From a virus (Duplodnaviria; Heunggongvirae; Uroviricota; Caudoviricetes), in IMG/VR virus record IMGVR_UViG_2537562194_000033: 27,095 nt of DNA. One strand, given 5' to 3'. The translations under genes were made by a program, and so were the position numbers. Shown in pieces: positions 1 to 25,417 of the stretch. Position 1 is the first letter of the stretch; each line of letters opens with the position of its first letter. The notes beneath the pieces were generated by a model. The model worked only from the letters and a program-made list of their open reading frames with translations, ran no database searches and was not told the DNA's origin.

Positions 1-501
1 CCGATATGTCTTCCATGCAGTCAGTAACGATGCCTCTTCCTCCGTCGCAATATCCAAATCTACGGCATCCTGAAGTGGCGCAATATGCTCACTGGCCATC
101 TGCATCAGGCTGTTTTTTGTTTCTTCCGCCTTCCGGATCCGGAACAGTTTTTCTGCTTCTGCATCTTTCACCCAGGCTGTGCCGTTCCACTTCTGAAACT
201 CCCCTTCCGGGGATAACCAGGTGACATTTTCCGGTAATGGGCCAAGTTCAGAAATAAATAACGCGTCGCCGGAAGCCACGTCATAGACGGTTTTTCCCCG
301 ATGGTCTTCAACGAGATTCCACGATGCCTCATCACTGTTGAAAACGGCCACGAAGCCAGCCGGAATATCTGGCGGGGCAATATCGGTACTGTTTGCAGGC
401 AGACCTGTATGAGGTGGAATGTATGCATCACCTTCACCAATAAACTCATTGGTTCCGGTCAGTAGATTATAAATTTTTATGGTCCGTGATTGTTCACTCA
501 T
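1..501 (-). CDS. tail fibre assembly protein (Tfa/gpG-like), 3' end cut by window edge
   Basis: Minus-strand frame is open from ATG at 501-499 to position 1 (checked every in-frame triplet for stops). Start lies 12 nt downstream of the tail fibre gene stop. Translation begins [20 protein letters not shown] and contains an ...[22 protein letters not shown] segment typical of phage tail fibre assembly chaperones. Absent from the ORF track because it has no stop inside the window. Confidence 0.75.
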
Positions 502-14349: not shown

Positions 14350-16575
14350 TTACGAACGAATAGGAATTGATGTTTGCGGTTGAATTGGCACGAGCACCTG
14401 ATTATAAGTACGTAAAATTTCGTTATACAGGTCTTGGTGCTTTGATGCCTTAATGGTAATTATAAGAGCATACTTGATTTTTTCTGCCTTATGGCTGGCT
14501 ATGCTTGCACCGGCCTCACGAGCGTTATAATGAATGTCAAATACAGGATTTTTTAGAGTTGAACCTAGCATGTTCTTCGAATTATGTAAGACGGTCTCCC
14601 ATTTGCCCATGTCAGAACGTCGCTCACTTTCAGTTGAATATTTGGCCAGTTCAAAGAATCCCTTGGTTTCAGCATTTTGTTTTCCGTCTTTGATTTTTGA
14701 ATCATTTGGCCGGAATGTCACTTCCAAACCAGCTTTTGTATAGGAAGCTGGGTCTTGTGGATCAGTGGTTGTTGCATAACAGAAAGTTGCCGCTAAGTTT
14801 ATTCTACCTTTCAAGCCACCTTCAGGTATTGGAAGAGAAGCGCGTAAGTATTTTCCTGGTTTCAATTCACCTTGGTAGACGATACGGGCAACACCATCAG
14901 GGCTGACTATAATGTCGTTCAAGTCTTCAGGCAGTTTTCCCCAGCCAACTTCTGTACAAGGATGATCAAGCTGTTTTGACGCATGAATTAACAAAGCTTT
15001 GATTGCTAGTAGGCTCAAATCGTTCCCTAAAATTGCCCGAACACCAACAGCTGCTCGTAAGGCGTAAGGAGAGGCAAAGCTTGTTCCTAGCTGGGGTATG
15101 ATTACAGGCTTCTTACCTTTACCTAAAACATGAAAGTACTCGTCTGTGTCACCACCAAACGCAACTAAATCCGGTTTCATCACGCCAGGACTTCTGCCTG
15201 GCCCAATGGCGCTATATGGTGCTCGTTTCCATTCCGTATCATTAACTGTATCACAAGCACCAACAGCAAGAGCATTAACGCAATCGGCTGGTACTTGAAT
15301 TCTTGCATTACCAGACTTGCGATCCATTTCTCCATTGTTGCCAACAGCAACAGTCATTAATGTTTCACCATCACTTAACAAATCATCAATAACGGAAGTC
15401 CATGCATGAACTTCCGTATCTTCAATTGGTAGGTCTGGACCTAAACTTAGATTGATAAACTGATACTGGCGAGACAACAATACCTCTTCAATAAAGCCCA
15501 AAGTTCGATATAGTTCCAGCGGATCTTCTTGGCAGGTCTTGTTGTCCAAAACTCTTAAGTTATCAATATAAGAGTATGGTCTTTTCGCTTCCGATTTATT
15601 ACTTATTGGTCCAAATAAAAAGGCTGAAGACACAGCTAAACCATGCTCTAAACCGTCTGGATCATCCTCTGCATGATCGTCCAAAACTCTATAGGATTTT
15701 AACCATGGCGATATAGCGTGCTCTGATGGTAAACCACCATCAAGAATCGCAACTTTTATTTCTGAAGATACGGGGCCCTCAGCAGGTAATTTACACTGAG
15801 CTAAAGGACCGTAGTTCCTTTGTATTGGTCTAATCCCACGCAATCTTGGAACCGGTCTTATTACTCGTACAAATGTAAATTTCGCAAGCTTACTAATAGT
15901 AATTCTATCGGCCTGGATTGGCACGAACCATAATGTACCAGCGGTAAAAGCTAATGAAGTATGTACTTTGATGTTCAAATTTGATGCAAACTGAACAAAT
16001 TGTTGCTGAACCAAGTCTTGTTCATTATCTGACAGTAAATGAACACCAACCTCAAAATACGAAGAATCCTGCTCACCAATGGTAATAATACGCTCTTCGG
16101 GTAAATAGGCATCGAACCGTTCTATGCGTGCAAAATCAATCGCTTCGTCAGAAAACTCTTTGAGTCCTGACACCCAATGAGGTAACTCTTTGAAGGATTC
16201 TCTTTTACCAGCAACAAACATTTGTGTCGTAGTTACTTCTGACACAGTAACTTTTCGCTTCCAGCTTTGAGGCGTAATTTTTACCGTCCTGCTGCCAATA
16301 GACGTTAACCCGGTAGACTTAAGCATTTTTGCAGGAAAAAAAGAGCGTGCAATATAGCTTGGATTCAACGTCAACTTAGCCACAGCATAATCATAAGGAC
16401 ATGCCTGACTGGGTAAATCATCAAAATTTTCTATAGTAGATGCAATTTGCGGCAATAAACGTTGTTTCGATTCGTAAAGAGAATAAACCTCAGCTTTTCC
16501 GGGCACTCTTTTAGGACCAGGAATATCGCTGGTTAATAATTCGCCGCGTCCAATCAGAAAATTAGTTTTCGCCAT
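14350..16575 (-). CDS. S8 subtilisin-like serine protease with uncharacterised N- and C-terminal domains (IetS-like?)
   Basis: 741 aa, ATG at 16575 with AGGAG 6 nt upstream. Catalytic motifs in canonical order: D279 (VAILDGG), H311 (LEHGLAV), N413 (VAVGNNGE), S499 (LGTSFASP). Flanked by ~265 aa N-terminal and ~200 aa C-terminal regions with no motif I recognise. AT-rich relative to the phage core. Confidence 0.85.
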   Translation of the reverse strand: MAKTNFLIGRGELLTSDIPGPKRVPGKAEVYSLYESKQRLLPQIASTIENFDDLPSQACPYDYAVAKLTLNPSYIARSFFPAKMLKSTGLTSIGSRTVKITPQSWKRKVTVSEVTTTQMFVAGKRESFKELPHWVSGLKEFSDEAIDFARIERFDAYLPEERIITIGEQDSSYFEVGVHLLSDNEQDLVQQQFVQFASNLNIKVHTSLAFTAGTLWFVPIQADRITISKLAKFTFVRVIRPVPRLRGIRPIQRNYGPLAQCKLPAEGPVSSEIKVAILDGGLPSEHAISPWLKSYRVLDDHAEDDPDGLEHGLAVSSAFLFGPISNKSEAKRPYSYIDNLRVLDNKTCQEDPLELYRTLGFIEEVLLSRQYQFINLSLGPDLPIEDTEVHAWTSVIDDLLSDGETLMTVAVGNNGEMDRKSGNARIQVPADCVNALAVGACDTVNDTEWKRAPYSAIGPGRSPGVMKPDLVAFGGDTDEYFHVLGKGKKPVIIPQLGTSFASPYALRAAVGVRAILGNDLSLLAIKALLIHASKQLDHPCTEVGWGKLPEDLNDIIVSPDGVARIVYQGELKPGKYLRASLPIPEGGLKGRINLAATFCYATTTDPQDPASYTKAGLEVTFRPNDSKIKDGKQNAETKGFFELAKYSTESERRSDMGKWETVLHNSKNMLGSTLKNPVFDIHYNAREAGASIASHKAEKIKYALIITIKASKHQDLYNEILRTYNQVLVPIQPQTSIPIRS

Positions 16576-16598: not shown

Positions 16599-17720
16599 TT
16601 ACATTTTTTGACTGTATTTTCTAATTGTATCCCTACTGACTCCGGTTAAGTCTGATATGGCATGCTGGGATAATTTAGAATTTCTTTTTAGAGTAACTGC
16701 AATTTCTTTACGTTCATTCCTGTCTAATTCTGATAAACCATCTTTAATGAACGACCCAATCAACTCTTCATCTGAGGAAATACCTAAAGCGACCGAACGT
16801 CGGAATTTGTTGATAGAACGCTCAATATTACTAAAAGATTCATTTTTGAACATAATAGCCAGTAGATCTATCCAACGTGCAAAAATCGCGTAGTCGGGAC
16901 CCGAAAAGCGTTTAATTGCTTCTTTAATACTTTCGCTATCTGGCTTCTCAAAATTGAGCACTAAATCAAAACGTCTCCATAGTGCTGGATCAATCAACTC
17001 AGCGAAGTTAGTTGCAGCAAGTAGCAAACTAGAAGACGGCCATTCGTCAACCTCCTGGAGTATCACGGTAACAAGTCTTTTTAATTCTCCAACATCAGAA
17101 TCATCACTTCTCTTTTTGGCGATTGAATCAATTTCATCTAACAGAAGAACGCACGGCCCTTTCTTCGCAAAATCTAGAGCTGCCCGAAGGTTATTTCCGC
17201 TTTTGCCCAGATAGCTGCTCATTACTGCCGTTAAATCAAGAACGTAAAAAGGAACCCCTAATTTCTGAGCTAACCAGCTTGCCGTAAGTGTTTTACCGAC
17301 ACCCGGAGGGCCAACAAAAATGGCAGAGCGTGTTGGTTGTAAGCCGAGAGTCTTGAGGCGATCGATGTGCTTCCGCTCAAGAATAATTTGATCCAGTGAG
17401 TCTTCTATCTGACTGGACAGTAGAGGTTTGCTCACAATCTTTTCATTTGGTGCTTTAAGCAAGGTAAGCCTTGACTCCTCGTCCACAGGCATGGTTTGAG
17501 GCAGCGCTTGTTTTGGTGCGGTAACCTTACGCAGGCTTTGTGCAGGCTTTTGCGGTTTATTTCGTAGATAAAGATCAAGCTGCTCGGATAGAGCAGGCAT
17601 AGTTTCCCGATATTTACGCACCAAGCGAGCGACATATAACCGAACGTCATCATACTGTTCAGTTATTACCAGTCTAACTAGTTGGGCTAAATCTGACTGA
17701 ATACCACCTAAGTCGCCCAT
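16599..17720 (-). CDS. AAA+ ATPase with C-terminal HTH-like tail (IetA-like?)
   Basis: 373 aa, ATG at 17720 with AAGAGG upstream. Walker A GPPGVGKT (K143), Walker B VLLLDEID, sensor-1 AATN, RR at 249-250. The last ~25 aa (SKLSQHAISDLTGVSRDTIRKY) look like a helix-turn-helix. Stop is 23 nt before the protease start, so the two are an operon. Confidence 0.85.
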   Translation of the reverse strand: MGDLGGIQSDLAQLVRLVITEQYDDVRLYVARLVRKYRETMPALSEQLDLYLRNKPQKPAQSLRKVTAPKQALPQTMPVDEESRLTLLKAPNEKIVSKPLLSSQIEDSLDQIILERKHIDRLKTLGLQPTRSAIFVGPPGVGKTLTASWLAQKLGVPFYVLDLTAVMSSYLGKSGNNLRAALDFAKKGPCVLLLDEIDSIAKKRSDDSDVGELKRLVTVILQEVDEWPSSSLLLAATNFAELIDPALWRRFDLVLNFEKPDSESIKEAIKRFSGPDYAIFARWIDLLAIMFKNESFSNIERSINKFRRSVALGISSDEELIGSFIKDGLSELDRNERKEIAVTLKRNSKLSQHAISDLTGVSRDTIRKYSQKM

Positions 17721-20672: not shown

Positions 20673-21038
20673 TTACTTCGTCATGCCATTCAGGGTGTCG
20701 CGGCAGACTGTAGCCAGCCGCTGAATTTCCAGCACGGTGTCTTCTGTGTCGGCATGGCGATGTGTGATGCGGATGCTGTCGGCAATCACATCGACGATTG
20801 CAGAGGATGGGCGCTGGTAAATGCCAATAACGGACGGGGTGCCACCTTCAATGCGGTAAAGCCTGTAATTTCCCTCGTGGCTGTCAATCATGTAGCGACC
20901 ATCAATAACAATCTTTCCGTCAGCGAGCTGCGGTACAGGCAGGGATTTCAGGTACATGTCATAACGATCACGCACGCGAGCGGCAAGATCACGTTCTGTG
21001 TTGAGCAGGTATTCAAGAAAGTCGTTGGCGAGAATCAT
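20673..21038 (-). CDS. hypothetical early-operon protein
   Basis: 121 aa, ATG at 21038, stop 7 nt before the A start. Position matches the small orfs upstream of A in P2-like phages. Confidence 0.6.
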   Translation of the reverse strand: MILANDFLEYLLNTERDLAARVRDRYDMYLKSLPVPQLADGKIVIDGRYMIDSHEGNYRLYRIEGGTPSVIGIYQRPSSAIVDVIADSIRITHRHADTEDTVLEIQRLATVCRDTLNGMTK

Positions 21039-21110
21039 TGCGGCAATCCTCTTGTTACAGATGTGCGAAGGCCTCCCGCCGCAAGGTGCAGGAAAGGCCC
21101 GGAACAGGAG

Positions 21111-21341
21111 TTAATGGAGTTTGTTTTGCTGCTGGATGAGCTGTTGAAGCTCGTGCAGATCATCCGCCAGATAGCTGAAAACAGAGGCGGAATAAATGTT
21201 TGATAGTGCGTGGCTGCGCTCATGCAGCATATTGATGTGCATGATTTGCGCGACGCGTGATGCGCGGGAAAGTCTGCGGTTGATTTCAGTCTGGATGTGA
21301 CGACGCTCCGCGATAGCGCGGTGTGGTTTGCGGTTTGCCAT
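21111..21341 (-). CDS. hypothetical basic protein (Arg/His-rich)
   Basis: 76 aa, ATG at 21341 with GGGG upstream. Function unknown. Confidence 0.5.
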   Translation of the reverse strand: MANRKPHRAIAERRHIQTEINRRLSRASRVAQIMHINMLHERSHALSNIYSASVFSYLADDLHELQQLIQQQNKLH

Positions 21342-21443
21342 GGTGTGGCCCCTTGTGTAGTAAGTTGTGAAAACTCACCATCCAGAGCTGCGAAACTGTG
21401 GGGGGCGAGACGTACGAGGTTCGCAGTACCGGCTACACAAGAA

Positions 21444-21462
21444 CCCGGCCCGACCGAAGTCG
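21444..21462 (-). ncRNA. UUCG-tetraloop hairpin inside a structured non-coding island
   Basis: On the transcribed (minus) strand, CCGAC-UUCG-GUCGG with flanking GG/CC extension, sitting in a 320-bp non-coding gap (21342-21663) rich in dyad symmetry. Confidence 0.35.
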
Positions 21463-21530
21463 GCCCCGTACGCCCCGCCATAATTCTGACGCGAAAAAAA
21501 CGTGGCAATACAGTACGCACAAAAAAACCG

Positions 21531-21551
21531 CTGGCGCGGTTGTGCGCTTGT
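21531..21551 (-). terminator. putative intrinsic terminator/attenuator within the early operon
   Basis: On the minus strand, ACCGC-GCCA-GCGGT followed by a 7-U run (the A run at 21531-21537 on the plus strand). The stem is short. Confidence 0.35.
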
Positions 21552-21663
21552 GTAGTCAGCAGGCTGCGAAACCCGGCACCCGTTTTGTGAGGTGCAGCGG
21601 AAATGTAACCTGACTGATTGCGGCATGGCAAGCGGTTTTTTTGTGTGTGCATGTTCTGGTTTC

Positions 21664-21963
21664 TTAGTGGTTCAGAAAAAAATCAAAAACCTTGTCAATG
21701 CGTTGCAGCAGCTCTTGCTGTATTGCTTCCGGCGTTTCCGGTTCGCCTGGCGCCTCCAACGTCGCGCAGAAATCCTCGATTTCATGACGGAGCGTCAGGC
21801 GAATGGCGAGAGGTGTGGTTCTGGCGTGCTCCAGCTCATCCAGCAGCGCCAGCACAGCAGACGGCGAGAGCATTGCGCGAAACGCCAGTAATTTTTGAGG
21901 CGTTGCCATTCGTTGCAGGTCAGTCGCCAGTTCGCGTAATTCCTGGTGGTTGATGGCGCTCAT
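21664..21963 (-). CDS. hypothetical early protein
   Basis: 99 aa, ATG at 21963 overlapping the upstream stop (ATGA). Confidence 0.55.
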   Translation of the reverse strand: MSAINHQELRELATDLQRMATPQKLLAFRAMLSPSAVLALLDELEHARTTPLAIRLTLRHEIEDFCATLEAPGEPETPEAIQQELLQRIDKVFDFFLNH

Positions 21964-22205
21964 GCTCTGGCTTCCTTTAGTAGCTGGTTAAACATGTTGG
22001 TAAGTGGATTGCCGCACCCGAACGGCATCGGGTTTATCTGGTAAGAAAAGCGACCGCCTGTTTTGCGCTCTTTTCTTATGACTGAACCGCTGCGCCAGAG
22101 TCGGCGTAACTCCGCATTAATGGCTGTGGTTGGGGTATTCAGTGCTGCGGCGATTTCTCCACCACTACACCCCGGATTGGCGGCGATATAGTCCAGAATG
22201 GTCAT
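21960..22205 (-). CDS. hypothetical small protein, possible winged-helix DNA-binding
   Basis: 81 aa, ATG at 22205 overlapping the upstream stop (ATGA). Contains an HTH-like GEIAAALNTPTTAINAELRRL segment. Confidence 0.55.
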   Translation of the reverse strand: MTILDYIAANPGCSGGEIAAALNTPTTAINAELRRLWRSGSVIRKERKTGGRFSYQINPMPFGCGNPLTNMFNQLLKEARA

Positions 22206-22405
22206 CTGCGTGACTCCTGTACCTGTCGGATAAGGTTCACCCGCACCACATTCGTGGCGCAGAAGTAAGTGCCGTCAGTGAGATAGATGTGATGTGCATC
22301 CTTTTCTGAACGGTGTTTGTCGATTGTGGTAATCAGGCGTTCGTCGACTTCGTATTCACGCCCTCTGGAGGTAAAACGAACGACAGGAAAATGCTTAATT
22401 GCCAT
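22202..22405 (-). CDS. hypothetical early protein
   Basis: 67 aa, ATG at 22405, in the translationally coupled chain. Confidence 0.5.
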   Translation of the reverse strand: MAIKHFPVVRFTSRGREYEVDERLITTIDKHRSEKDAHHIYLTDGTYFCATNVVRVNLIRQVQESRR

Positions 22406-22490
22406 TACGCCTCCTTGGCGTGTGCGAATACCTCCGCGAATGCGGATTGTTTTACATTTTCTTATTTAATCTGTGGTTTTATTTGCTCTG

Positions 22491-22604
22491 TTATTCGCCA
22501 GTGAAAAAGCGTTCAATCTTTTTTATTGAATGAATAATTCGCATAATCCCAATAGCGCAGGCCACCGAAATAATCAGAACAAGCCATGAGATAAATATAC
22601 TCAT
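22491..22604 (-). CDS. small hydrophobic peptide (37 aa), not in ORF track
   Basis: ATG at 22604 overlaps the stop of the upstream gene (ATGA). Translation MSIFISWLVLIISVACAIGIMRIIHSIKKIERFFTGE is a single transmembrane helix with a basic tail. TAA at 22493-22491. Confidence 0.45.
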   Translation of the reverse strand: MSIFISWLVLIISVACAIGIMRIIHSIKKIERFFTGE

Positions 22605-22843
22605 GCGATATTCCCCAGCTTATACGGTTCAATATGTTCCCCGCACTCTGCGGCACAGATCAGCTCGGAAAGTTCGTTAAGTGCATCCAGATCATCAGCG
22701 TAAAAAGCCACGTCATACAGACTTCGGATTGCTCTGGTCAATGAGTCACGGGCCGCACGTTCAGCATGAGCGCCTGATGCACTTAAGCGAAAATAAAAAC
22801 GCTCAAGTGCTTTGTTAATGAGAGTTTTATATTCTTTGCCCAT
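22601..22843 (-). CDS. hypothetical early protein
   Basis: 80 aa from ATG at 22843 (the track start at 22846 is a GTG). Confidence 0.55.
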   Translation of the reverse strand: MGKEYKTLINKALERFYFRLSASGAHAERAARDSLTRAIRSLYDVAFYADDLDALNELSELICAAECGEHIEPYKLGNIA

Positions 22844-22854
22844 CACAACGCCCC

Positions 22855-23142
22855 TTAATCTGCTTTCTGTATTTCAGCTTCTGAATCCATACAAATAATT
22901 TCGATATAGGGTTCATCGCCATTAACCTGGCGTGCCTTTTCAGCTTCGCTAATGATTTCTCGTACGGTCTGGTACGGAAGTTCCACAAGCAGTCGCGTGC
23001 CGTTCAGATAAACGTAAGTGGCTTCGTCGGCTCCGTTTTTACCCGCCGGAGTTACTCCGTCAATAGCGGATGCACGTAATAACAGTTCACCGCGAAAATC
23101 AATAAAACGGATAAATACACCTTGTGCATGGTCTTTGGTCAT
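22855..23142 (-). CDS. hypothetical early protein
   Basis: Start set to ATG at 23142 (MTKDHAQGVF...), 95 aa, with AGGTG upstream. The longer track ORF from 23256 would overlap the upstream gene by about 100 nt. Confidence 0.55.
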   Translation of the reverse strand: MTKDHAQGVFIRFIDFRGELLLRASAIDGVTPAGKNGADEATYVYLNGTRLLVELPYQTVREIISEAEKARQVNGDEPYIEIICMDSEAEIQKAD

Positions 23143-23152
23143 AAAGCACCTG

Positions 23153-23494
23153 TTATAAATCAGCCTGTTTAATAAAACTTTGCCCGCGAAGCAGACGATC
23201 AACCGTGCGAAGTGCTTCGTATAATGTGAAATCCTGCCCGAACTGATTGTCGCCACTGCTTAGAGCAAAAATGCGGTTTCCGGTAAACGGATTGCGTGGG
23301 CATTTGTGGATCACGATTCCAGCTTTCTCAATCAGCCAGGCATGCTCGCCGATTTGTTTTACTGGGTAGCCATCCGGCGTTGCGTGTGTATCACTCAGGC
23401 TGTAGCGGATGTTGCTGCGTGATGCACTGGTAGCAAAACGGTTAGCGTGGCGTTCTGCACCATTGCGAAAGCGTGAATTACGTTGCTGTTTCAT
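23153..23494 (-). CDS. hypothetical early protein
   Basis: 113 aa, ATG at 23494. Confidence 0.55.
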   Translation of the reverse strand: MKQQRNSRFRNGAERHANRFATSASRSNIRYSLSDTHATPDGYPVKQIGEHAWLIEKAGIVIHKCPRNPFTGNRIFALSSGDNQFGQDFTLYEALRTVDRLLRGQSFIKQADL

Positions 23495-23495
23495 G

Positions 23496-23603
23496 TTAAA
23501 GACTCTGTACAGATTTAATTATTCCGGCATAGAGGCCGAACTCAAAATATTTGCGATTAAATCGCATCGCATTGTTTTCACGTTTTGCGGACTGCTGGTT
23601 CAT
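23496..23603 (-). CDS. possible small protein (35 aa), not in ORF track
   Basis: ATG at 23603 with GGAGG 9 nt upstream. The stop is 1 nt before the next gene's ATG. Translation MNQQSAKRENNAMRFNRKYFEFGLYAGIIKSVQSL. Confidence 0.35.
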   Translation of the reverse strand: MNQQSAKRENNAMRFNRKYFEFGLYAGIIKSVQSL

Positions 23604-23746
23604 TTTCGTTTGCCTCCGCACATGAGAATTGCGCCGCTTAAGAGGTAACCGAAGTTAATTGATAGTATTACAATTAACATAAGGTCCAATTTGTCCATGC
23701 CACACATAATTACCCTCATTGCAGTAGTTGTGGGTTGTCAGGTTTC

Positions 23747-23953
23747 TCACCCGATAAACCAGATAACAAACGCTATAAACATCGCCCCAATAGCTGCCGG
23801 GAAAAGTCCTTTGGTATAAGCGGCGATATATTCAATGCTGAGTTCAATAAAGCGTTCTTCATGTCCCGTTAACTTGCGAAACAAATAGATCTCTATTACG
23901 CCTATCTCAATAAAAACAAGGGTCAGAATGGCGCTGATGATATGGCTGGTCAT
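23747..23953 (-). CDS. small membrane protein (2 predicted transmembrane helices)
   Basis: 68 aa, ATG at 23953, 6 nt after the cox stop. Strongly hydrophobic (ILTLVFIEIGVIEIYLF, AAIGAMFIAFVIWFIG). Confidence 0.6.
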   Translation of the reverse strand: MTSHIISAILTLVFIEIGVIEIYLFRKLTGHEERFIELSIEYIAAYTKGLFPAAIGAMFIAFVIWFIG

Positions 23954-23959
23954 TTATGA

Positions 23960-24149
23960 CTAAAGTCCCAGCCACAACAACCATGCGTCGCGGCGTTCTT
24001 TCGGTTGCTCAAAAAACGCTTTGCGCATGCCTTCGTTAAATGCTGGCAGATATACCCAGTTTTCTGATGCACGCGTCTTTACTGAACCTGGTTTCACAAA
24101 GTCAATTGTCGGTAGCTTTGCTGCGTCAATCATGGTTCTGACTGTGGAT
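23960..24149 (-). pseudogene. cox: cox (excisionase/early repressor) 3' fragment, separated from its 5' part by an IS insertion
   Basis: Joining 25560-25460 to 24149-23960 and removing one copy of the GAT duplication gives an intact 95-aa ORF: MSESELGGFIQVAPYPLEAVPYQLFAKMIGRKESTVRTMIDAAKLPTIDFVKPGSVKTRASENWVYLPAFNEGMRKAFFEQPKERRDAWLLWLGL. It resembles P2 Cox as recalled. Confidence 0.8.
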
Positions 24150-24203
24150 TGAACCGCCCCGGAAATCCTGGAGACTAAACTCCCTGAGAAAGAGGTAAAC
24201 AGG

Positions 24204-24530
24204 ATGACTAAAAATACTCGTTTTTCCCCCGAAGTCCGTCAGCGGGCGATTCGTATGGTTCTGGAAAGTCAGGATGAATATGACTCACAGTGGGCGGCAA
24301 TTTGTTCCATTGCCCCAAAGATTGGCTGTACGCCGGAGACTCTGCGTGTCTGGGTTCGCCAGCATGAGCGGGATACCGGGGGCGGTGATGGTGGGCTCAC
24401 CAGCGCTGAACGTCAGCGTCTGAAAGAGCTGGAACGTGAAAATCGTGAACTGCGCCGCAGTAACGATATCCTTCGCCAGGCTTCCGCTTATTTTGCGAAG
24501 GCGGAGTTCGACCGCCTCTGGAAAAAATGA
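24204..24530 (+). CDS. IS3-family transposase OrfA (HTH and leucine-zipper part)
   Basis: 108 aa. The -1 frame relationship to orfB at the A6 run (24522-24527) fits the programmed frameshift typical of IS3-family elements. Confidence 0.9.
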
Positions 24531-25417
24531 TGCCACTGCTGGATAAGCTGCGTGAGCAGTACGGGGTCGGACCGGTATGCAGCGAACTGCATATTGCCCC
24601 GTCAACGTATTACCATTGTCAGCAACAGCGACATCATCCGGATAAACGCAGTGCCCGTGCGCAGCACGACGACTGGCTGAAGAGAGAGATACAGCGCGTA
24701 TACGATGAAAATCATCAGGTGTACGGTGTGCGTAAAGTCTGGCGTCAGTTGTTACGGGAAGGAATCAGGGTGGCCAGATGTACAGTGGCACGTCTCATGG
24801 CGGTTATGGGACTTGCCGGTGTTCTCCGGGGTAAAAAGGTCCGTACGACCATCAGCCGGAAAGCCGTTGCCGCAGGCGACCGCGTAAACCGTCAGTTCGT
24901 GGCAGAACGACCTGACCAGCTGTGGGTGGCTGATTTTACTTACGTCAGCACATGGCAGGGCTTCGTCTATGTGGCGTTTATCATTGATGTGTTTGCCGGA
25001 TACATCGTGGGGTGGCGGGTCTCATCGTCTATGGAAACGACATTCGTGCTGGATGCGCTGGAGCAGGCGTTGTGGGCCCGTCGTCCGTCTGGCACCATCC
25101 ATCACAGCGATAAAGGCTCTCAGTATGTGTCACTGGCCTATACGGAGCGACTAAAAGAAGCCGGATTACTGGCATCAACAGGGAGTACAGGCGACTCGTA
25201 TGACAACGCGATGGCTGAGAGCATCAATGGTCTTTACAAAGCGGAGGTAATACACCGTAAGAGCTGGAAAAACCGTGCAGAAGTGGAACTGGCCACACTA
25301 ACGTGGGTGGACTGGTATAACAATCGACGATTGCTGGGAAGGCTGGGCCATACTCCTCCGGCAGAAGCAGAAAAAGCTTATTATGCTTCCATCGGAAACG
25401 ATGATCTGGCAGCCTGA
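24527..25417 (+). CDS. IS3-family transposase OrfB (DDE catalytic domain)
   Basis: 296 aa with an rve-type integrase core (WVADFTYV...HSDKGSQY...[14 protein letters not shown]). Confidence 0.9.

Follow-up and report, generated by a model that had tools for sequence, protein, structure and literature searches.

A conserved 37-codon membrane-protein gene overlapping a DUF4754 gene in the early operon of P88-like prophages

The 37-codon open reading frame (ORF) that follows the DUF4754 gene on the minus strand of the window (the whole stretch of 27,095 nucleotides analyzed here) is a genuine gene. It is present in more than 140 related loci, in each of them directly after DUF4754 and with the same 4-nt overlap, and its substitution pattern indicates that it is under purifying selection. 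The gene is also already known: it is called in public records, and the present work adds nothing to the current annotation. The identical protein is RefSeq WP_000021652.1 ("hypothetical protein") of E. coli 95NR1 (NZ_CP021339), gp07 of phage P88 ("membrane protein"; YP_009113050.1) is the same gene at 97% identity, and WP_000021655.1 occupies the same place in O157:H7 strains. UniRef names it "Prophage membrane protein," with 183 members in the 90% cluster and the exact sequence on 999 contigs. Full-length identity and synteny between Cox and gpA place it in the P88 gp07/WP_000021652 cluster; their genes all follow DUF4754 at the same place and overlap it by 4 nt, nothing substantive differs among them, and the three records carry no functional or experimental annotation. 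The first-pass annotation had described the gene as unlisted, which holds for the ORF track it worked from but not for NCBI, P88, or UniRef. With a 221-nt query spanning the gene, matches are found in 1388 of 5426 complete E. coli genomes (~26%), including O157:H7, O111, O145, and ST131 strains. Small single-pass membrane proteins are familiar members of phage early operons, and this one would be worth including when early phage proteins are screened for action on targets in the host membrane.

Table 1. Window positions of the gene, its flanking elements, and other features of the prophage
Feature	Position	Strand	Remarks
37-codon gene with stop	22491-22604	-	predicted single-pass small membrane protein; ORF read and translated, annotation, conservation
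ATGA start/stop overlap with DUF4754	22601-22604	-	putative translational coupling junction, read directly
Shine-Dalgarno-like GGGGAA	22611-22616	-	in last DUF4754 codons, 6 nt before ATG
DUF4754 gene (80/81 aa)	22601-22846 (start 22846/22843)	-	Pfam PF15946, 2.9e-54; PHROG 2549, function unknown
A6 run	22519-22524		within the 37-codon gene
T5 run	22504-22508		within the 37-codon gene
47-aa ORF in another frame	22513-22656	-	spans DUF4754 end and peptide gene; rejected as coding
Weak promoter-like site	22818-22790	-	same strand as the gene
Spacer, peptide gene to orf67	22406-22490	-	85 nt; orf67 has its own strong AAGGAGG Shine-Dalgarno
Hairpin TCCGC-N4-GCGGA (inverted repeat, 5 bp)	22433-22446	.	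45 nt past the peptide-gene stop
isrK	21521-21595	-	Rfam
C4 antisense RNA	21398-21485	-	Rfam
"Derepression" protein, PF25738	21111-21341	-	directly after C4/isrK matches
68-aa membrane protein gene	23747-23953	-	PHROG 14475; directly after cox
cox remnant	23960-24133		last 57 codons
IS1203 (IS3 family)	24151-25417		transposase 24204-25417; ALIL pseudoknot 24485-24601
AAA ATPase (IetA)	16599-17720	-	PADLOC, 1e-77
S8 peptidase (IetS)	14350-16575	-	PADLOC, 1e-51
IS009 match	1-170	-	Rfam, 167 bits; cut by window start

Start site, overlap with DUF4754, and conservation

Read on the minus strand, the ORF extends from an ATG at 22604-22602 to a TAA stop at 22493-22491 and translates as MSIFISWLVLIISVACAIGIMRIIHSIKKIERFFTGE. 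The minus-strand sequence across the junction is ...GGGGAATATCGCATGAGT..., in which the TGA stop of the DUF4754 gene (22603-22601) overlaps the ATG. Position 22604 is the sole possible start for the full-length product because the frame is closed by a TAA 18 nt upstream and the interval holds no start codon. Both the coordinates and the peptide sequence given in the first-pass annotation are correct, as is its reading of an ATGA junction at 22604, and the conservation of this overlap supports its description of a translationally coupled coding gene. Its further statement that the same pattern is used throughout the operon is overstated: the 12 tabulated genes meet at 11 junctions, and 4-nt overlaps occur at just 3 of them (DUF4754 to the 37-codon ORF, orf67 to the winged-helix [wHTH] gene, and wHTH to orf99). 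The GGGGAA segment forms a duplex with the anti-Shine-Dalgarno sequence of -5.5 kcal/mol, which ranks in the top 18% among all ATGs of the window and is comparable in strength to those of the other coupled genes of the operon. In divergent homologues the duplex at the same position ranges from -4.2 to -8.5 kcal/mol; the purine run is retained in all variants examined, with GGGGAA and GGGAAA both occurring in the set of 82 loci described below.

Two collections of loci, neither of them gathered through the peptide itself, document the linkage. Among 82 loci fetched via the neighboring DUF4754 protein, the ATGA junction and the ORF are present in all 82, with the 37-aa frame intact in 73, a 45-aa variant in 8, and a truncation in 1. 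A further independent search, for which only a profile built from divergent DUF4754 proteins was used, recovered 47 loci, every one of which has a small ORF at offset -4; one of these uses a GTG start (GTGA), and two peptide copies are shortened to 30 aa at the A-run. The frame and the coupling are thus kept in homologous regions, a comparison that had been proposed as a check at first pass, with loss of the frame as the contrary outcome. In phage records, too, the peptide gene accompanies DUF4754 wherever the latter occurs (14 of 14). Phage 503458 (57% identity) was considered as an exception and set aside, its record being full of indels in both genes. A phmmer search against 1.84 billion representatives returned only eight relatives, including 41-aa forms at 57-68% identity. 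When three intact divergent homologues were looked up, the gene followed DUF4754 with the 4-nt overlap, between Cox and gpA, on nine of nine contigs. A scan of genome contigs gave a single locus, in E. albertii, and the peptide family is confined to prophages of Escherichia, Shigella, Salmonella, and Citrobacter.

The pattern of substitutions singles out the 37-codon frame. Across 22 distinct 114-nt alleles, 12 of the 23 variable sites fall at third codon positions, and pN/pS is 0.26 in this frame versus 1.46 and 0.91 in the two other sense frames. Against the divergent alleles, pS reaches 0.5-0.8, so that synonymous sites are near saturation, with pN at 0.2-0.3 and dN/dS at ~0.1-0.3. The 47-aa ORF read in another frame has an open counterpart of 67 aa in E. 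albertii; this frame is regarded as noncoding because its pN/pS is ~1 or more. About 10% of related loci carry a 1-nt length change in the A6 or the T5 run, which yields either a 45-aa product with an altered tail or a 30-aa truncation. These slips may be sequencing errors, decay, or phase variation, or they may be a sign that the tail is dispensable. DUF4754 entries of 104-128 aa were considered as possible fusions with the peptide and rejected; those that were read out had either slipped into the alternative frame or carried spurious N-terminal extensions, and most came from run-level assemblies.

The linkage to DUF4754 and the overlap remain strict even though the identity of the DUF4754 proteins falls to ~35-40%, and this invariant genetic coupling suggests that the two products are needed together. 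The DUF4754 product is predicted to be a soluble two-helix protein (AF2 pLDDT 88.8; helices 4-48 and 52-66), and a Foldseek comparison of its model with the PDB gave generic helical matches at E > 1, none of them significant. The peptide and DUF4754 alleles recombine independently: loci L089 and L090 share the peptide and have very different DUF4754 proteins, and L137 and L140 mix types. Consequently, the alleles offer no covariation in support of a direct complex between the two products.

The predicted membrane peptide

The best 19-residue hydropathy window covers residues 3-21 (mean Kyte-Doolittle value of 2.7; GRAVY of 1.26 for the whole peptide), and AF2 models one continuous helix over residues 2-34 with a pLDDT of 92. 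There are no K or R residues before the transmembrane helix and four after it, and this positive-inside pattern holds in all four variants analyzed (the peptide and three divergent homologues). The predicted topology is N-out/C-in because the basic residues lie only C-terminal to the helix. The single transmembrane helix with a basic tail recognized at first pass is in keeping with the hydropathy, the charge pattern, and the modeled helix alike.

An alignment of 40 distinct full-length peptides, whose length is fixed at either 37 or 41 aa, separates a small set of constrained positions from a permissive hydrophobic background. M1, S6, W7, L10, G19, I24, and E31 are invariant; F4, R22, I23, K28, I30, and F34 are nearly so; and positions 13 (S/A) and 17 (A/T, with a single V) stay small. 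Most of the other hydrophobic positions drift among I, V, L, M, and F. Beyond the membrane segment, the C-terminal tail is basic and amphipathic, with a conserved R22 followed by the motif K28-x-I30-E31-x-x-F34. The polar character of this motif and the small-residue face of the helix suggest a specific protein contact rather than generic membrane damage. A lipoprotein or a cleaved signal peptide was considered and rejected: there is no K or R before the helix and no conserved lipobox Cys or AxA site. Homologues replace C16 by M, F, or Y and A15 by V, L, I, or F, and this lack of conservation at both positions rules out a lipobox and a signal-peptidase site. At permissive thresholds, the peptide has no match in Pfam, PHROGs, NCBIfam, PADLOC, or PDB sequences, and we found no functional, expression, or localization work on it in the literature.

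An early membrane protein with a specific partner, weighed against other readings

We consider the chances about even that the peptide is an early-made small membrane protein, coupled to DUF4754, that acts as a modulator or anchor through a specific partner and is not a nonspecific pore toxin. Under this proposal, ribosomes finishing DUF4754 would restart at the overlapping ATG, aided by the moderate Shine-Dalgarno sequence, and synthesis of the product would follow transcription of the early (Pe/Cox) operon, occurring during infection or induction and not in the repressed lysogen. Residues 3-21 would cross the inner membrane, leaving a 2-residue N-terminus outside and the amphipathic basic tail on the cytoplasmic face. 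The contact with the partner would be made via the invariant S6-W7, the small-residue face ([S/A]13, [A/T]17, and G19), and the tail motif. The partner could be the cotranslated DUF4754 protein, a host inner-membrane protein, or both, and the peptide would act as part of the early takeover of the host.

The nearest functional precedent found, and the working model for such a role, is Gp11 of the temperate Staphylococcus phage PhiNM1. This small membrane product of an early gene acts on specific membrane-associated proteins of the host: it binds both MurG and DivIC, and division is blocked (PMC11237401). The peptide likewise comes from the early genes of a temperate phage and is a small membrane protein by prediction; however, the hosts and phages are unrelated, the likeness is one of description, and Pfam and PHROG assign the peptide to no phage family. 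Among proteins of comparable build, AcrZ, MgrB, and MgtS are single-pass inner-membrane regulators of <50 aa, each of which acts on a larger membrane protein that it binds, and the Pf3 coat protein, which is inserted by YidC, shows that a short N-out/C-in helix can enter the membrane with no signal peptide (PMC12648545). The peptide resembles all four in being single-pass and shorter than 50 aa, with no homology to them; unlike a phage early peptide, AcrZ, MgrB, and MgtS are products of chromosomal stress-response genes, and the Pf3 coat is a structural protein. A more pointed version of the proposal, which we hold only tentatively and think doubtful, is that the two genes form an obligate early module of the genus Xuanwuvirus, in which the peptide brings DUF4754 to the inner membrane or activates it there and so blocks an essential function of the host, in its envelope or in division. 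If this were true, DUF4754 and the 37/41-aa peptide would be a previously unrecognized pair of phage host-takeover proteins, carried by about one in four complete E. coli genomes.

The main competing reading is a membrane-damaging toxin of the type I toxin, Kil, or holin kind, which would oligomerize and dissipate the proton-motive force or arrest growth, thereby causing host shut-off or abortive killing. A short, hydrophobic single-helix build with a charged C-terminus is general among Hok/TisB-type toxins and class III holins, and the type I toxins of Enterobacteria (Hok, TisB, Ldr, Ibs, ShoB, DinQ, and ZorO) are 19-52 aa long with one hydrophobic helix and a charged end. The peptide is like them in size, in its strong hydrophobicity, in having one transmembrane helix, and in its charged C-terminus, and its small-residue face with the invariant G19 could drive self-association. 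The resemblance to toxin peptides pointed out in the first-pass annotation nonetheless stands at the level of composition and goes no further. We found no similarity to toxin, defense, or phage families, and local alignment to known small proteins, toxins included, gave only composition-level scores, a weak test that we do not count as evidence. Whereas a type I toxin-antitoxin locus combines its small hydrophobic membrane peptide with a cis- or trans-encoded antisense RNA antitoxin that adjoins or overlaps its mRNA, an independent promoter, and a regulated 5' UTR, here the start overlaps the upstream stop inside a 12-gene operon, and the gene is thus coupled rather than a stand-alone cassette. 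There is no promoter-like site on the plus strand over 21000-24300 and no match to an antitoxin RNA family, even at E <= 1; the opposite strand shows nothing but the terminator-like hairpin past the end of the ORF, beyond which the sequence is not conserved. The conserved polar motif predicted to be cytoplasmic argues for a specific contact, and in an early operon that has no lysis-gene neighbors, killing the host before replication would harm the phage. On balance, we regard a toxin as unlikely. The setting also differs from that of a holin gene, which lies in a late lysis cassette beside an endolysin: the neighbors here are DUF4761, DUF4754, a wHTH regulator, and gpA, all in the early operon.

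Two further readings fare less well against the position and the conservation of the gene. Small inner-membrane proteins of temperate phages, such as the Sie/Imm-type proteins, commonly exclude other phages, and the peptide might likewise be a superinfection-exclusion or lysogenic-conversion protein, expressed in the lysogen from an internal promoter and blocking DNA entry by related phages. The abundance of the gene in E. coli genomes and the weak promoter-like site on its strand (Table 1) would fit such a role. However, promoter-like sites are as frequent as expected from shuffled sequence (4 found versus 3.9), prevalence simply follows that of the prophage, and the gene, coupled to its upstream neighbor within the C-repressed early operon, does not lie at the known P2 cargo positions, where the window has IetA/IetS. 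These observations make an exclusion function decidedly improbable. The peptide might, alternatively, be a by-product, with ribosome traffic over the region being what matters, either by keeping Rho off the mRNA or by presenting the hairpin downstream. An untranslated spacer of 85 nt with a conserved hairpin does come next, and C-terminal frameshift variants are tolerated in roughly a tenth of the loci. Against this, what is conserved is the amino-acid sequence and not just an open frame, as seen from the low dN/dS (0.1-0.3) with synonymous sites near saturation, the seven positions invariant in 40 distinct peptides, and the fixed length, and we assign this possibility a very slight probability.

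The prophage, its early operon, and adjacent elements

The 1.7 kb around the ORF are 100% identical to a chromosomal prophage beside pdxB in E. coli 95NR1 and in many other strains. The operon is the early operon of a P88-like phage of the P2 family, genus Xuanwuvirus (type phage P88), in agreement with its designation as a prophage early operon at first pass, and it leads from Cox to the gpA replication endonuclease. The minus-strand order is Cox, a 68-aa membrane protein, DUF4761, orf95, DUF4754, the 37-aa ORF, orf67, a MarR-type wHTH protein, the Ead-like orf99, the isrK and C4 RNA matches, the "derepression" protein, orf121, and gpA. The 68-aa protein, the second small membrane protein encoded here, is absent from phage P88, and an unusually long gap of 252 nt with hairpins separates its gene from DUF4761.

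This copy of the operon is interrupted. The left end of IS1203 (TGAACCGCCCCGG...) starts at 24151, inside cox, of which the remnant in Table 1 is left in place of the 95-aa Cox of intact relatives. With IS1203 in place, the early operon and the peptide gene in it are no longer joined to the Pe promoter or to the C repressor region. The peptide copy in the window may therefore be silent, and the prophage copy is probably not normally inducible. The insertion is probably recent because the peptide gene is still identical to the copies in intact phages.

Downstream of the peptide gene, a spacer of ~80 nt is kept in divergent loci despite a different downstream gene. The hairpin within it occurs in every locus examined, the most divergent included; 98.7% of the cells in its alignment are paired, and there is one compensatory change from a C-G to a U-A pair. 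Homology breaks just after it (query positions 273-286), and variable cargo genes begin there. On its 3' side, the conserved block of DUF4754 and the peptide gene ends at the hairpin. On the plus (antisense) strand, the hairpin and a T-run score as terminator-like, and the element could serve as an antisense terminator, a protector of the mRNA end, a palindromic operator, or a recombination boundary.

Several other features of the window were observed in passing. The Rfam IS009 match lies at its very start. Immediately downstream of gpA, the AAA ATPase and the S8 peptidase match IetA and IetS of the IetAS anti-phage defense system and look like a defense cargo of the prophage. Finally, the C4/P4-CI-type RNA, isrK, and the derepression protein together look like a P1/P4-style RNA-controlled antirepressor module in a P2-like phage.
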